Below, piece by piece: positions 11,170 to 59,789 of a DNA stretch of 62,830 bases. Below the pieces are notes generated by a model. The model saw only the letters and a program-made list of their open reading frames with translations, had not been told where the DNA came from and searched no databases. Positions within the stretch are counted from its first letter, which is position 1. Each line of letters starts with the position of its first letter. Source of the DNA: an uncultured Phaeodactylibacter sp. (GTDB lineage Bacteria > Bacteroidota > Bacteroidia > Chitinophagales > Saprospiraceae); assembly GCA_964488965.1 (NCBI GenBank), contig CAZAXA010000001.1:1-62830 (forward strand). Reading direction: 5' to 3'. The position numbers were made by a program, and so were the translations under genes.

Positions 11170-12852
11170 ATGGATAAAGCGCAACTCATATCGGAAGTAA
11201 AGGAACTTCTGGCCAATGCCGAGACGGAGAAGGCCCTCGGCCGGATGGCGGAATTCCTGCAAAACAGCCCGGAGTACCGGCAGTTGTACAACCTTGCCCT
11301 GCAGGCGCGGGCGCAGTTCCGGAAAACCCAGCGGGATGAGCTTCAGGGCCTGGCTTCCGCCGAGCAAAGCAAGCTGAACTACAACCAGGTGACCCGGCAG
11401 GCCTTCCAGATCGCCGAATGGCTGGAAGAAGGGAACCTGCGGCCTGAGGCAGGTTTTGCAGAGGGCAGCCCCCGGCGGTGGCCGCTGGTTGCAGGCATTA
11501 TCGCCCTGCTGCTGATCCTGGGGAGCGGGGGGTATTGGTGGTACCGGTCGCAGCAAGGAAATGCCGAAGAACCCGGGGGAGGTGAAGAACCTCAGCAAAC
11601 CTCCTGCCCTCCGGAAGTGGAGTTCGACCCTGCTTCGGATTTCAATATTCTGGTCATGCCATTTCGAGGCTCGAAAGGGGCGGAACTGCCGCCCCATATC
11701 GCCATTGTCTTTCGCCTGGATGAACTGAAAAATGAATACCGGATTCCCTGCAGCATAAAGGACTTTCCTGTTGATAATCCCGGAAGCGAAATTGCTACCA
11801 CGGAGGACGCGGACAGAAGGGCCAGGGATTGCAAAGCTGAACTTATAATCTGGGGTATTGCCGAGAAGGTTTCCGGCAATACCATCATCTATACCCGTTA
11901 TAAATTTGTCAGCCGTGGAGACCAGTTGCCATTGTACAAGCTTAAAATGACGGAAAATTCCGGGCTGGATACAGTAACCACCATCTCCAGCATCGCCACC
12001 GCCGGTATCCTTACCGAAGGGATTGAGGAGAGTATCAAACTGCTCTTCGGCCTTATCGCCCACGAAAATGAAAACCTGCCGGTGGCTATCGAGATGCTGG
12101 AAAAGTATGAAACGCAGGACTCTGCCGCTACCCTCGTGAAAGGTATGGTACTTGCCCAGGACTACCTGGCCAGCGGCCAGTCGCAGAAAGCCTGGGAATC
12201 CTACAACCAGGTGCTGGACCAGCACCCCAACTACGCCCTGGCCCGCAACAACAGGGGGATGCTCAACTTCCAGAAAGGCAATTATTTAGAAGCCGCCGAA
12301 GACCTCAGCGTGGCCCTGGAAACGGCGCCGGATACCAGCAAGGCGGACATTCTGGAGCTTCGGGGCGCCGCCTACCTCAAGGCCGACCAGTTGGACAAAG
12401 CCAAGGCCGACCTGAAGGATGCCCGGGAATTGCGGCAGCCTGATAAAGGCGTCGATAAAAAAGATGCCCTTGACAGGAAGATCAAAGAGATAGACAGAAA
12501 AATTGAGGCAGAAAAAAGCACCAAGGCATCGGCTGAAGCCAAACTGCGGCTCGACCCCAACAACCTGACGGCACTGAGCCAGAAAGCGGTGTCAAGCCAA
12601 AGGCTGGGCGACTACCAGCAGGCAATCGAGGCCAGCCGGGCCATCCTGCGGAAAGACCCCCGCAATATTGACGCCTACGTAAAGATCATCCAGGCCTACC
12701 GCAGCGCCGGCGATGCCGAACAGATCGAAAAGGCCATCCGGCAGGCCGAAGCTGCCGGCATTTCCAGGGACCGGCTTAACCAATTGACGCCCTTCGACCT
12801 GAACCGGCTGCCTTTGCGGCCCGCCGGCAGTATTCAACTGAAAAAAAACTGA
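11170..12852 (+). CDS. Membrane-anchored TPR protein with an N-terminal helical adaptor-like module
   Basis: 560 aa. Residues 1-90 form a helical module related to the N-terminus of 58395..59789. A TM helix follows (WPLVAGIIALLLILGSGGYWWY). Next is a domain starting FNILVMPFRG... The C-terminal part contains TPR-like repeats (e.g. YALARNNRGMLNFQKGNYLEAAEDLSVAL). Confidence 0.75.
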   Translation: MDKAQLISEVKELLANAETEKALGRMAEFLQNSPEYRQLYNLALQARAQFRKTQRDELQGLASAEQSKLNYNQVTRQAFQIAEWLEEGNLRPEAGFAEGSPRRWPLVAGIIALLLILGSGGYWWYRSQQGNAEEPGGGEEPQQTSCPPEVEFDPASDFNILVMPFRGSKGAELPPHIAIVFRLDELKNEYRIPCSIKDFPVDNPGSEIATTEDADRRARDCKAELIIWGIAEKVSGNTIIYTRYKFVSRGDQLPLYKLKMTENSGLDTVTTISSIATAGILTEGIEESIKLLFGLIAHENENLPVAIEMLEKYETQDSAATLVKGMVLAQDYLASGQSQKAWESYNQVLDQHPNYALARNNRGMLNFQKGNYLEAAEDLSVALETAPDTSKADILELRGAAYLKADQLDKAKADLKDARELRQPDKGVDKKDALDRKIKEIDRKIEAEKSTKASAEAKLRLDPNNLTALSQKAVSSQRLGDYQQAIEASRAILRKDPRNIDAYVKIIQAYRSAGDAEQIEKAIRQAEAAGISRDRLNQLTPFDLNRLPLRPAGSIQLKKN

Positions 12853-50691: not shown

Positions 50692-53337
50692 CTATTCACC
50701 GAACAACAGCAGCCCGCTCCATATTGCCGGCGCTGCCGTTGCCTTAGCCCGGATCATTCCGAGCTTGGCCTGCCGAAGCGCCGCCGCGGGGCTTTGGCCA
50801 CCAAGCAATTCCTTATAAAGGGGCGCCATCATTTCCACAGCATAGATACTGGCAGGCTTCCAGAGGGATATTATTACATTGGAGGCGCCGGCATCCAGAA
50901 AAGAACGGCTCAGGGAGAGGGCGCCTTCACCTTCCGCCAACTGCCCCATGCCGCTATCACAGTTGCTGACCACCACCAGTTCGGCCTGAAGCGTCAGGGT
51001 GGCGGCCTCCGGACAGAAGAGGATACCGTCTTCGGCGCTGCCGCCTTCCTTTTGGGCGAAGGCGATACCGGACAGAGCGGGGGTGGCCTCGTTGATAAAA
51101 CCGTGCGTGGCCAGGTGCAGGTAGCGGCAATGCCCGGCGCGCTCCCGGAAAGCCGGCTCGCTGGCCTCAGCCCGGAGCAGCGCCGCTGCGGTTTGTTTTT
51201 TACCGGAAAACTGTTCCAGGATGCCATTCATCTCTATTTCCGAGAGTGGCAGGGGAAGGAAGCGGCGCCCGTCGGGAGCGGCGGCGAGCAGGCTTCTGCT
51301 CTGCTGGTAAGCAGTGTCGAAGACAAAAGCGTTGCTGCTTCCGATGGCGTTGTCATTTGCCTGTTGGCTGAAAAAGGGGGCCATGCCCAGCAGGCCTTCG
51401 CCGTAGTTGCCGGACGGAGCGCCTGCCCTCGCGAAGAGGCTTGCCGAATGCCGGTACTGAACGGCCACATCTCCGATGAGGTAATCGAGCTTGTGCAGTT
51501 TTACCTTTTCCGGTTTGTCCATCCTGTTGGCGGACAGCGCTTCAAAAGGAATATGGACAAGCTTCCCGTGGGGAAGGATGATGAGTTCTTCTTTCTCATC
51601 GAGCAGTCCCTTTACCGGGAGGATGAGCCGCCTATAGAGGTTGCCGCTGTAAAAAGCGAATTTCTGTTCGTCCCCTTGCCGGATAGCCTTCAGGTAGCCG
51701 TCGATGGCATCGGGCAGGGCGGGCAGTTTCAGTTCCTCGTCCGGCCCGGCGCTGAGTTGCGATACTGTGAAACTGCCGTCGGCCAGGGCAAAGATGAAGT
51801 AATGGCTATTGCCGGTGAAGTAGGCCAACATGGCCTGCTTTTTGCCGAGTTTGCCCTGCAACTGTTGAGGCGTAGCCAGTTCCAGGGCGAAGCGTTGCCG
51901 GTAGTAGGCCGGCGAAGCGCTTTGGAGGCTTTCGGCGAAGGCCCGGTAGGCCTGCCGCCGGCGCTCCAGTTTTTGCTGCAGGCCCGCCTTGTCGGGGTAG
52001 AGGTTGAAGTCCGCCTCTGCCGCTTTCATGGCGTAGCGCAGGCGGGCTTCTTCTTCCCGCAGGTCCGGCGGCAGTTGCGCAAGCCCCTGCCGGTGGATGC
52101 GGTTGAGGCGCAGTGCCAATGCCCGGGCGCGTTCGGAAAGCTCGAAGGCCTTTTCGGCCTGGGCAGGGTTGCCTGTTGCCCGATAAAGCCGGCAGGCTGC
52201 GGTTATGCCCGCCTCGAAGACGGGAATATGTTCTTCCAGGATGGCCAGGCGGTTATTCTCGTCAATAAGCAGGGCCGCTTCCTCTTCCAGCGCTTCGATG
52301 CCGCGCTGGCTGGCAGCCAGGGCCTGCCCGAGGTGTTCCTGCCCGCCTGCTTTAAGCAGCAGGGCCGCTTTTGCCGACAGGGCGCGGGCCAGCAGGAGGC
52401 GGCTGAGGGAAAGCTGTTCCGGGCCGGGATTATCCCCGATGCGGGCGCCGGCAAAGCCCGGGCAGAGCTGGCGGAGCGCTTCCTGCACGGCATAACGGGC
52501 GCCTGCCGTATCTTCTGTGCTGAGCCGGAGTTCCGCCAGAGCGATCAGGCTACGGCCCAGTTCGCGGCGGCTTCCGCCATCAGGGCTTTGAAAAGCCTCT
52601 CTGGCCAGAGCATAGCAGGCCTCGGCTTTCTGGAAGGCCCCTTCCCGGAAGGCCAGTTCTCCCCGGGCGTCATACAGCTGCCCCTTGCGGGCGGCGCCGC
52701 CCGCCAGCCCTTTTTCCACGGCCAGAGCTTTTTCCATCCATTCCCAGGCAGCTTCCGTATTCCCTTCGAGCAGGCAGGTGCGCCCAATGTAGTAATAATT
52801 GATGGCAACGGCCGGCGCCTCTTCCCCTTCTTCGATCAGGAGGATATCCAGCGACTGTTGATAGTACCGGCGGGCCCGTTCGTACTGTTTAAGTTCCGCA
52901 AAGGTATGGCCGAAATGTTCCTTGATACGGGCGGCTGTCTGCGGGGCGTCGATAAGGGGGAATGCCTCGGAGCGGAACAACTGGGCCAGCGCCCGCTCGT
53001 ATTGGCCCTGCCGGAGATAGATGGCGCCGGCGCGCAGGTAGTTTTTTGCAGCATCTTCAGGGATGAACTGCTGCAGCAGTTCCAGGGAGGCGGCGTTGTC
53101 GGCCAGGGCGGCCGCCAGGTTGCCCAGTTGCAGGTAGTTGTAACTCCTCAGGAAGAGGGCCTCTCCCTTATCGTACAAGCGGCCGGGATGGGCATCCATA
53201 AACTCGCCGAGCAGCGCATTAGAGGCCTCGTAGCGGCCGGCAGCGGAAAGGGCTTCGGCCTCCCCGAGCATCTTTTCGGGCTGTGCCTTGGCGGTATGTA
53301 AAAAAGTGAGCAGTACAAAGAGCAGGGGATATTTCAT
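50692..53337 (-). CDS. Secreted TPR-repeat CHAT-domain (caspase-like) protease
   Basis: 881 aa with a signal peptide (MKYPLLFVLLTFLHTAKAQ). About 550 aa of TPR-like repeats are followed by a C-terminal CHAT domain with a His/Cys dyad context (YLHLATHGF ... LVVVSNCDSGMG). Confidence 0.9.
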   Translation of the reverse strand: MKYPLLFVLLTFLHTAKAQPEKMLGEAEALSAAGRYEASNALLGEFMDAHPGRLYDKGEALFLRSYNYLQLGNLAAALADNAASLELLQQFIPEDAAKNYLRAGAIYLRQGQYERALAQLFRSEAFPLIDAPQTAARIKEHFGHTFAELKQYERARRYYQQSLDILLIEEGEEAPAVAINYYYIGRTCLLEGNTEAAWEWMEKALAVEKGLAGGAARKGQLYDARGELAFREGAFQKAEACYALAREAFQSPDGGSRRELGRSLIALAELRLSTEDTAGARYAVQEALRQLCPGFAGARIGDNPGPEQLSLSRLLLARALSAKAALLLKAGGQEHLGQALAASQRGIEALEEEAALLIDENNRLAILEEHIPVFEAGITAACRLYRATGNPAQAEKAFELSERARALALRLNRIHRQGLAQLPPDLREEEARLRYAMKAAEADFNLYPDKAGLQQKLERRRQAYRAFAESLQSASPAYYRQRFALELATPQQLQGKLGKKQAMLAYFTGNSHYFIFALADGSFTVSQLSAGPDEELKLPALPDAIDGYLKAIRQGDEQKFAFYSGNLYRRLILPVKGLLDEKEELIILPHGKLVHIPFEALSANRMDKPEKVKLHKLDYLIGDVAVQYRHSASLFARAGAPSGNYGEGLLGMAPFFSQQANDNAIGSSNAFVFDTAYQQSRSLLAAAPDGRRFLPLPLSEIEMNGILEQFSGKKQTAAALLRAEASEPAFRERAGHCRYLHLATHGFINEATPALSGIAFAQKEGGSAEDGILFCPEAATLTLQAELVVVSNCDSGMGQLAEGEGALSLSRSFLDAGASNVIISLWKPASIYAVEMMAPLYKELLGGQSPAAALRQAKLGMIRAKATAAPAIWSGLLLFGE

Positions 53338-58394: not shown

Positions 58395-59789
58395 ATGGAA
58401 GGCCTGGATAAAATAAAACGCGGCCTGGAAAAACTGGTAGGCGAAGACCACCTCCCCGAAGCATTCGCCCGCCTTTTGGAGGCCCTTCCGGAAAAGTCTC
58501 CACAGCGCAGCGCCGTGCTGTTGCTGAAAAGCAGGATGAAGGGCGCCGAAAAGAAGCGTGCGGAAGGGACGATGAGCGACGAGAAGGTCGAACGCGCCCT
58601 CAACCGCATCCGCTCGGCCCTGCTGAAACTGATCGGCGGGCTGGAAGCAAGCGATTTTGACCCCGGACAGATGCCCTCCAGGCTGTCCCAATCCGGCAAG
58701 GTCAAACAGGGCAGCATCCTGCACCGCATCCCGGGGCAGATGGAGCTCCTGAAGGAAACGCGCTGCCTGGTGCGCATCGCGCTTGACGAAAAGACTCTCC
58801 TCGAGAACATCAGCCTGGACGAGCACTCCAAAATCGAATCTCTCCGCATCGCCGAGGCCATGGAGGTGGAACTGGCCGGCCCCGATAAGGGCAATACCTT
58901 CTCCATCCGAAATGTGAACAGGACAAAGCAGTTCATCGACGAAGACGCGCCCACGCAATGGCTGTTTTACGTCAGGCCCCTCCGGCAGGGCGTCTTCCCG
59001 CTGATTCTGAAGGTGGCGGTGATCGAGAAGGTGCATGGCGAAGAATGCCGGCGGGAGGCCGTATTCGAAAGGACGATCGACATCGTGGCCGGGCCGGCGG
59101 AGGAAGCTGAAGAAGACGCCTTCGAACGGGCAGGTTTTTCCTTCAACTATTATACCACCAGCACCATGGCCGGTATAGATGCCGTCGCTGTCACTCAACC
59201 GGAAGTGGCCGGCAAGGAGCCCTTCCTCATGCAGGTCGAGGATGTGTTCACCCTCCGGGGGCAGGGCACGGTGGTCGCCGGCAGGATCGTGCAGGGCGTC
59301 GTCAGGGCGGGCAGCACGGTCGAGATCGTCGGCGAGGAGGCCTCCGGGGCAAAACCGAAGGCCCTTACGGCGACGGCCGTGGAACTGTTCCGCAAAATGC
59401 CGGACGAGGAGGAGGAAGAGGACGACGCCATCCGCCGCCTGCTGCTGCGGGGCATCCGCAAAGGCGCCATACAGCGGGGCATGCTCATCCGTTCACCCGG
59501 CGCCGCCCACGCCCGCTTCATAGCGGAGTTACGCCTGCCGGGCAAAGTGGAAGGCGGGTGGTTCAGGGCAGTGCACGGCGGCTACCAGCCCCGGTTTTAC
59601 TTCGGCGCCATTGACATGGCCGGCCAGTTGAAGCTGCCTGGCAGCATAGAAATGGCCATGCCGGGCGACAGCGTTACCGTTGAGGTGGAACTGGCGCAAC
59701 CTCTTGCTGTGGAGAAAGGCCTGCGCTTTGCTATTCGCGAGGGTGGGCTGACCATGGGGGCAGGCAAGGTGACGAAGGTGTTGAAATAG
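58395..59789 (+). CDS. Fusion protein: N-terminal helical adaptor-like module + beta-rich middle region + EF-Tu domain II/III homolog lacking the GTPase domain
   Basis: 464 aa with ATG at 58395. Residues ~274-464 match EF-Tu domains II-III motif by motif: EPFLMQVEDVF, GTVVAGR, VEIVG, LFRK, LLLRGI, GYQPRFYF, MPGD, GLRFAIREGGLTMGAGKVTKVLK. No P-loop, DxxG or NKxD motif occurs anywhere in the protein. Confidence 0.85.
   Translation: MEGLDKIKRGLEKLVGEDHLPEAFARLLEALPEKSPQRSAVLLLKSRMKGAEKKRAEGTMSDEKVERALNRIRSALLKLIGGLEASDFDPGQMPSRLSQSGKVKQGSILHRIPGQMELLKETRCLVRIALDEKTLLENISLDEHSKIESLRIAEAMEVELAGPDKGNTFSIRNVNRTKQFIDEDAPTQWLFYVRPLRQGVFPLILKVAVIEKVHGEECRREAVFERTIDIVAGPAEEAEEDAFERAGFSFNYYTTSTMAGIDAVAVTQPEVAGKEPFLMQVEDVFTLRGQGTVVAGRIVQGVVRAGSTVEIVGEEASGAKPKALTATAVELFRKMPDEEEEEDDAIRRLLLRGIRKGAIQRGMLIRSPGAAHARFIAELRLPGKVEGGWFRAVHGGYQPRFYFGAIDMAGQLKLPGSIEMAMPGDSVTVEVELAQPLAVEKGLRFAIREGGLTMGAGKVTKVLK

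Follow-up and report, generated by a model that had tools for sequence, protein, structure and literature searches.

The stretch of DNA analysed here, hereafter the window, comprises 62,830 nucleotides from the genome of an uncultured Phaeodactylibacter sp. (contig CAZAXA010000001.1) and contains genes for two quite different proteins that begin with the same small helical module. One of them, at 11170..12852 (+), encodes 560 aa in which the module is followed by a single transmembrane (TM) helix and TPR repeats, and will be called the TM-TPR protein. The other, at 58395..59789 (+), encodes 464 aa ending in a partial copy of EF-Tu, and will be called the EF-Tu fusion. Both open reading frames (ORFs), with their N-termini, are as described in the original prediction, which was made from the letters alone and which had noted a resemblance of the module to the effector-associated domain (EAD) adaptors of bacterial conflict systems. 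That reading was correct: each head matches the Pfam family PF19964 (EAD11).

In a Pfam-A search, the head of the TM-TPR protein matched PF19964 with an E-value of 1.5e-11 (44.5 bits) and that of the EF-Tu fusion with an E-value of 6e-17 (61.8 bits), exceeding the curated gathering score of 26 bits by 18 and 36 bits, respectively. The same hidden Markov model (HMM) found nothing above its cut-off in 14 control genomes. The likeness of the two heads to each other, which had been claimed from their length and helix pattern, is borne out at the level of profiles. A pairwise BLASTP comparison gave no alignment, and the heads are 15% identical in a multiple alignment; hhalign, given the first ~95 residues of 14 orthologs of the TPR protein and of 8 relatives of the EF-Tu fusion, aligned the two profiles over 84 columns with a probability of 96.3% and an E-value of 1.7e-9. 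With ~85 residues and no match to a catalytic family in Pfam, the EAD11 head is small and non-enzymatic, as are the EADs as a class.

How far does the module extend beyond these two proteins? The genome of the window (G000; 6.9 Mb in 943 contigs, ~90% complete) holds 18 matches to PF19964, all above the cut-off. The window itself has no EAD11 beyond the two proteins described, so that, as predicted, no STAND partner with this head lies within it. A genome-wide scan for the module, however, found 16 further EAD11 proteins, including two STAND NTPases, a caspase, a TIR protein and a kinase (Table 1). With such partners encoded elsewhere in the genome, the module is therefore neither restricted to the two window proteins nor without a possible NTPase counterpart. 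EAD11 is terminal in all 18 proteins (15 N-terminal, 3 C-terminal), as expected of an EAD, and its presence both on NTPase cores and on effector or signalling domains is likewise a property of the class. A single TM helix follows the head in 7 of the 18, where the charge bias indicates a cytoplasmic head.

Table 1. Features of the two window proteins and the EAD11 proteins of the genome. Positions are nucleotides of the window or, for proteins encoded elsewhere, the contig.
Feature	Position	Strand	Basis or remark
TM-TPR protein: EAD11 head	11170..11439	+	PF19964 at residues 6-82 (nt 11185-11415); AlphaFold2 four-helix model
TM-TPR protein: single TM helix, residues 106-124	11485..11541	+	hydropathy 1.83 over 19 residues
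TM-TPR protein: post-TM region, residues 129-300, predicted periplasmic, without known family	11554..12069	+	no Pfam match
TM-TPR protein: TPR repeats, residues ~308-529	12091..12756	+	Pfam TPR_9, TPR_16, TPR_2, TPR_1 and others above cut-offs
EF-Tu fusion: EAD11 head	58395..58658	+	PF19964 at residues 7-84 (nt 58413-58646); AlphaFold2 four helices
EF-Tu fusion: Ig-like beta-sandwich middle domain, residues 104-233	58704..59093	+	AlphaFold2 all-beta, block pLDDT 74-92
EF-Tu fusion: EF-Tu domains 2 and 3, GTPase domain missing	59265..59780	+	Pfam GTP_EFTU_D2 (residues 291-365), GTP_EFTU_D3 (371-462)
NTPase core: EAD11-NB-ARC-TPR	C213		652 aa
NTPase core: EAD11-nSTAND1-FGE-sulfatase	C48		933 aa
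Enzyme: caspase-EAD11	C16
Enzyme: TIR-EAD11	C181		ThsB-like by PADLOC
Enzyme: EAD11-Ser/Thr kinase	C660
Enzyme: weak NARF-like match with EAD11	C203
Membrane, AbiC-like: EAD11-putAbiC	C241
Head, one TM helix, outside domain: TM-TPR protein	window
Head, one TM helix, outside domain: EAD11-TM-DUF4384	C165
Head, one TM helix, outside domain: EAD11-TM-CarboxypepD_reg	C646
Head, one TM helix, outside domain	C392; C502; C221
Head, one TM helix, outside domain: head-Ig-TM	C394
EAD11 without recognisable cargo	C113; C309; C348

EAD11 is expanded specifically in this lineage. Each of the 9 sister genomes of the genus has it, in 10-36 copies, and within the family it was found in 18 of 24 genomes, but the figure is only 1 of 16 for the order's other families and 3 of 120 for other Bacteroidota (an even sample, at least 90% complete). 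In relatives, EAD11 is also found at the C-terminus of ROCO, HEAT, SIR2 and TIR proteins. The ROCO protein is an LRR-Roc-COR GTPase of 1550 aa in G002 (L090, 4229-8881, -), and the HEAT-repeat protein, of 1324 aa with a weak sub-threshold NACHT match, is in G006 (L091, 4082-8056, -). EAD11-nSTAND1-FGE-sulfatase (FGS) and EAD11-Ig-FGS proteins are also encoded in G002 and G006. Judging by these domain orders, EAD11 appears to serve several NTPase classes within one genus.

The EAD11 head is modelled by AlphaFold2 as a plain four-helix bundle. The predicted helices of the TM-TPR head span residues 3-15, 19-30, 34-58 and 64-87 (pLDDT 93.7, pTM 0.82), and those of the EF-Tu-fusion head residues 2-16, 20-30, 36-57 and 62-81. 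A Foldseek search of the PDB with the EAD11 model gave no match at E <= 0.001, and the top rows of a wide structural search (VIA) were generic four-helix bundles, with the best Z of 10.3 to designed proteins. No Death-fold chain was among the matches listed in either search. Since only generic helical-bundle matches were obtained, a specific structural relative, the Death fold included, is not supported. Finally, a complex prediction for the heads of the nSTAND1-FGS protein (A5) and the EF-Tu fusion (A6) scored 0.01 against a mark of 0.32, a result that weighs neither way.

For the TM-TPR protein, the original prediction had placed the head in the cytoplasm, ahead of a TM helix. A hydrophobic helix does follow the head, and the positive-inside rule fits the proposed orientation: the flanks hold three lysine and arginine residues on the N side versus one on the C side, with acidic residues on the C side. 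This distribution of charges recurs in most of 13 orthologs and in all 6 of the other TM-bearing EAD11 paralogs. Considering this charge bias, the protein is most likely oriented N-in, with its EAD11 head in the cytoplasm and its TPR part in the periplasm.

Exactly one ortholog of the TM-TPR protein is present in each of nine genus genomes, as well as in one sister genus. The gene adjoins proC in at least 7 of the 9 genus loci, with rmuC downstream in G000, and it evolves faster than this neighbour, the orthologs being 50-61% identical versus 87-91% for proC. Among the orthologs the head is the best conserved part (68% identity), other parts reaching 46-56%, and of the long regions the one after the TM helix is conserved least (46%). 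Identity of the head is 67-78% to orthologous heads but 12-24% to the 17 paralogous heads encoded in the same genome. In the ESM Atlas, the post-TM region, like the Ig domain of the EF-Tu fusion, falls into unnamed clusters with weak leads (an EAD11 cluster at 0.84, TolB_N at 13% and FlgO at 17%). DNA of the locus is present in sludge and wastewater metagenomes. In addition, contigs of four sludge or wastewater libraries labelled metatranscriptomic, two of them of uncertain kind, span much of the TPR gene and part of the head; such contigs cannot show transcription, DNA carry-over is possible, and a stretch without cover between proC and the TPR gene in one run carries no meaning.

The EF-Tu part of the fusion aligns to solved EF-Tu chains from residue ~200 to the chain end, and the GTPase domain is therefore missing. 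Complete copies of the fusion are confined to G000, a metagenomic twin that is 96% identical, and G008/P0002. When the copies of G000 and G008 are compared, identity falls from 73% in the head through 69% in the Ig domain and 59% in D2 to 46% in D3, so that the head is again the best conserved part. Over D2-D3 the two fusions are 51% identical, compared with 96% for the true EF-Tu of the same genomes, and the cargo of the fusion evolves ~12 times faster than the EF-Tu that the cell itself uses. In other proteins of the genus, head and Ig domain are joined to different C-termini, among them FGS and a TM helix plus a YfiO-like TPR, and EF-Tu D2-D3 thus fills a variable position where binding domains are otherwise found. 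Orthologs of the EAD11-nSTAND1-FGS protein that likewise bear EAD11 are present in G008 and G002, and this protein hence co-occurs with the fusion in both fusion-bearing genomes, a small sample of two. No EAD11-bearing ortholog of the NB-ARC STAND was found in the genus, and this protein was therefore dropped as a conserved partner.

Several details of these proteins deserve mention in their own right. In D2 of the fusion, the conserved EF-Tu loop (A/Q)GDNVG is replaced by an acidic EEEEEDDAIRR (59400-59460 of the window, residues ~336-355), and in D3 the EF-Tu motif GGRHTPF reads GGWFRAV, with RHT changed to WFR. We take the GDN loop and RHT to be tRNA-contact loops of EF-Tu, and their replacement suggests that the tRNA contacts have been altered or lost. 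The Ig-like domain, which belongs to no Pfam family, is a mobile module of its own, with ~20 genus paralogs that carry other C-termini; it is also present in a 775-aa open frame of G034 (L058), a genome of another family in which EAD11 was not found. A specific relative for this domain did not emerge, as Foldseek with the EAD11+Ig model gave generic Ig/PapD/MSP-like sandwiches only. The nSTAND1-FGS protein belongs to a large repertoire of STAND/FGS paralogs, with 11 matches to it in G000 and a maximum of 23, reached in G002; most of them have N-termini other than EAD11.

Some EAD11 genes have neighbours of interest. In G000, just one EAD11 gene is likely to share an operon with an effector gene: on contig C165 (L023, 3161-7070, -), the gene for EAD11-TM-DUF4384 is followed after 62 bp, on the same strand, by one for a 960-aa WD40-caspase. 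On C660 (L025, 320-3374, +), the EAD11-kinase gene immediately follows a gene for an AbiEii toxin and is cut off by the contig end; its Ser/Thr kinase resembles the mad6 and PD-T4-6 kinases of PADLOC. The EAD11 ORF on C309 (L021, 586-1910, +) encodes 135 aa with the domain at the C-terminus and overlaps by 123 nt, in another frame, a 346-aa ORF without Pfam family; the overlap may mean that a longer EAD11 protein has been split by a frameshift or by an error of assembly. We rejected the possibility that the EAD11 ORF is a detached piece of a larger gene lying upstream, since the ORF found there is the end of recG. The window also encodes, at 50692-53337 (-), another conflict-type protein, a caspase-like TPR-CHAT protease of 881 aa (CHAT in Pfam, E 4.8e-48) without EAD11. 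Unlike in G000, neighbouring EAD11 copies are seen in the relatives G079 and G019. In G079, a gene for EAD11-X adjoins one for TIR-EAD11. Contig C8 of G019 (L094, 2230-8276, -), from the same family, carries an operon for EAD11-CHAT (297 aa), SIR2-EAD11 (384 aa) and nSTAND1-LRR (1259 aa), in which the stop of SIR2-EAD11 overlaps the next start; EAD11 was not detected on the nSTAND1-LRR protein.

What could one head be doing on so many different proteins? We consider it reasonably probable that both window heads are EAD11 adaptors, through which proteins of different kinds join NTPase switches that also bear EAD11, in a counter-invader network. Following the "EAD principle", the head would bring sensor-like and effector proteins to the switches, which in G000 would be the NB-ARC-TPR and nSTAND1-FGS STANDs. 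The sensors would be the periplasmic TPR part behind its one TM helix and the Ig domain with its EF-Tu D2-D3 bait, the effectors would be the caspase, TIR, kinase and AbiC-like membrane proteins, and together they would give a regulated response, either against the invader or by cell suicide. In such a network, the TM-TPR protein would be the constant, receptor-like member, and the EF-Tu fusion a rare, fast-evolving and bait-like one. What the analysis shows is that both heads belong to EAD11, their fold class, the repertoire across the genome, the expansion in the lineage, the pattern of conservation and a topology signal; binding of EAD11 to EAD11, the pairing of partners and a role of the two window proteins as sensors are inferred. 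In favour of the adaptor reading, the domain orders may be cited, as may the conservation pattern: in both proteins the head is conserved best (68% and 73%), and the cargo diverges.

Several observations weigh against the adaptor reading. There is no experiment or structure of EAD11-EAD11 binding, and the EAD papers searched report no test of EAD-EAD recruitment. EADs of one genome or locus are reportedly more alike than copies found in different genomes (Kaur et al. 2020), unlike the paralogous heads of G000, which are 12-24% identical; this divergence could mean that the heads have distinct pairing specificities, or that contacts are made via a few conserved positions, such as the G-T-x-S turn and the N-R-I helix. 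The EAD11 genes of G000 are scattered among mostly housekeeping neighbours, and no contig has an adjacent pair, the two genes in the window being 47 kb apart, though adjacency may be undercounted in an assembly broken into 943 contigs. PADLOC models cover neither window protein nor the two STANDs. Finally, the TM-TPR gene, single-copy and next to proC throughout the genus, resembles a stable housekeeping gene more than a mobile defence gene.

This last point leads to a different view of the TM-TPR protein, namely that it is an envelope housekeeping protein whose head is a mere cytoplasmic handle for binding or dimerisation, with only the EF-Tu fusion and the enzyme-bearing paralogs belonging to an immune network. 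The single ortholog in all nine genus genomes and in a sister genus, the proC and rmuC neighbours and the absence of defence genes beside the gene would all be accounted for, and envelope assembly factors commonly have TPR repeats and a periplasmic location. Against this, the head is a bona fide PF19964 domain, of a family otherwise carried by STAND, caspase, TIR, SIR2, CHAT and ROCO proteins; the protein diverges faster than its neighbour ProC; and six other paralogs have an equal layout of head, TM helix and outside domain. We judge this explanation rather unlikely. A common head could also mean a common output instead of recruitment, if EAD11 were an oligomerisation-triggered executioner or an autoinhibitory bundle like the plant CC domain. 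The four-helix model, the CC-NLR-like order of EAD11-NB-ARC-TPR, the many membrane-bound EAD11 proteins and a tomato NRC3 resistosome chain among the weak Foldseek rows (E 1.8) are in keeping with this idea; however, the structural matches are of the kind that any helical bundle would give, and the head is carried, at times C-terminally, by proteins that have an effector of their own (caspase, TIR, SIR2 or kinase). An adaptor therefore fits better, and an executioner seems quite improbable. As for a chance resemblance between two helical, charged N-terminal segments, the blank BLASTP comparison and the low pairwise identity are all that speak for it. The curated PF19964 cut-off passed by both heads, the hhalign result, the empty control genomes and the agreement of helix boundaries between two independent models effectively refute it.

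A bolder extension of the adaptor reading is that the seven proteins with a head, one TM helix and a periplasmic binding domain, among which the TM-TPR protein is the constant one, are death-receptor-like sensors. They would report envelope events, such as phage adsorption, predation or damage, to the cytoplasmic EAD11-STAND, caspase and TIR modules via like-with-like contacts between heads. The EF-Tu fusion would be their soluble counterpart in the cytoplasm, a bait for those proteins of an invader that attack EF-Tu. We regard this scheme as speculative and unlikely to hold as stated.

The adaptor reading leans on the EAD principle and the logic of terminal adaptors set out by Kaur, Burroughs, Iyer and Aravind in 2020/2021 (PMC7159879, PMC8195603), and in these source papers, too, homotypic EAD-EAD interaction is a prediction. 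EAD11 shares with the class a small, all-helical, non-enzymatic terminal domain in many copies per genome (EAD1, for example, reportedly has 22 in Frankia, and the 18 copies of EAD11 in G000 are within that range), its occurrence on STAND and ROCO NTPase cores as well as on effectors (caspase, TIR, SIR2, CHAT, kinase), and a variable, fast-evolving cargo. The contexts of EAD11 in relatives match the EAD principle as well, including the Roc-COR protein with its C-terminal domain, since Roc-COR proteins of filamentous Bacteroidetes bear varied C-terminal effectors or EADs (PMC7159879, PMC8195603). On the other hand, the copies in G000 are dispersed rather than operonic, and the paralogous heads are old and divergent. 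Cargo such as EF-Tu D2-D3, or a TM helix with periplasmic TPR repeats, is not named with EADs in the main texts searched, where EF-Tu domains are named only in an EACC1-caspase system, and the term "EAD11" was not found in the supplement of PMC7159879. The EAD11-nSTAND1-FGS proteins of G000 (C48) and G002 have the order of the described EAD/effector-STAND-FGS proteins (PMC8195603), but the N-terminal position is held here by EAD11, whereas that source, where it treats such proteins, lists EAD1, 2, 7, 8 and bDLD3.

EAD11 is already a Pfam family, and a public protein collection tags both window proteins and their orthologs with PF19964. The proteins described here are thus a clear but ordinary example of predicted bacterial immune wiring, which confirms an existing annotation and extends the catalogue. 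The present analysis contributes the genome-wide list of partners, the receptor-like class with a single TM helix, the observation that the TM-TPR protein and its head are conserved throughout the genus, a model of the head with four helices, and the operon examples in relatives. EADs have so far been a purely computational prediction, and this genome with its genus is a compact test bed for them, with 18 heads of one family, two NTPase cores, classical effectors and two unusual kinds of cargo, a receptor-like protein with periplasmic TPR repeats and a fast-evolving copy of EF-Tu that lacks the GTPase domain. Phaeodactylibacter has cultured species. Pairing of the heads, if true, would represent adaptor-mediated, trans-wired immune signalling in bacteria, and would identify what the odd cargo senses.

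Two eukaryotic systems offer further comparisons. Metazoan Death-fold signalling (FAS-FADD-caspase) likewise has a small helical terminal module common to a membrane receptor, here at most a receptor-like protein, to NTPase switches and to a caspase, and the like-with-like assembly proposed for EAD11 would be analogous. However, EAD11 is modelled with four helices versus the six of the Death fold, and the EAD11 membrane proteins are predicted to be oriented N-in, the reverse of FAS. Plant CC-NB-ARC-LRR proteins have a four-helix bundle before an NB-ARC NTPase and a repeat sensor, as does the EAD11-NB-ARC-TPR protein of G000, but there is no detectable sequence relation, and EAD11 is also found on many non-NTPase proteins and at C-termini. 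If the heads did link envelope receptors and the EF-Tu bait to switches and caspases as supposed above, bacteria would have a trans-acting equivalent both of receptor-adaptor-caspase signalling and of the integrated decoys of plant NLRs.

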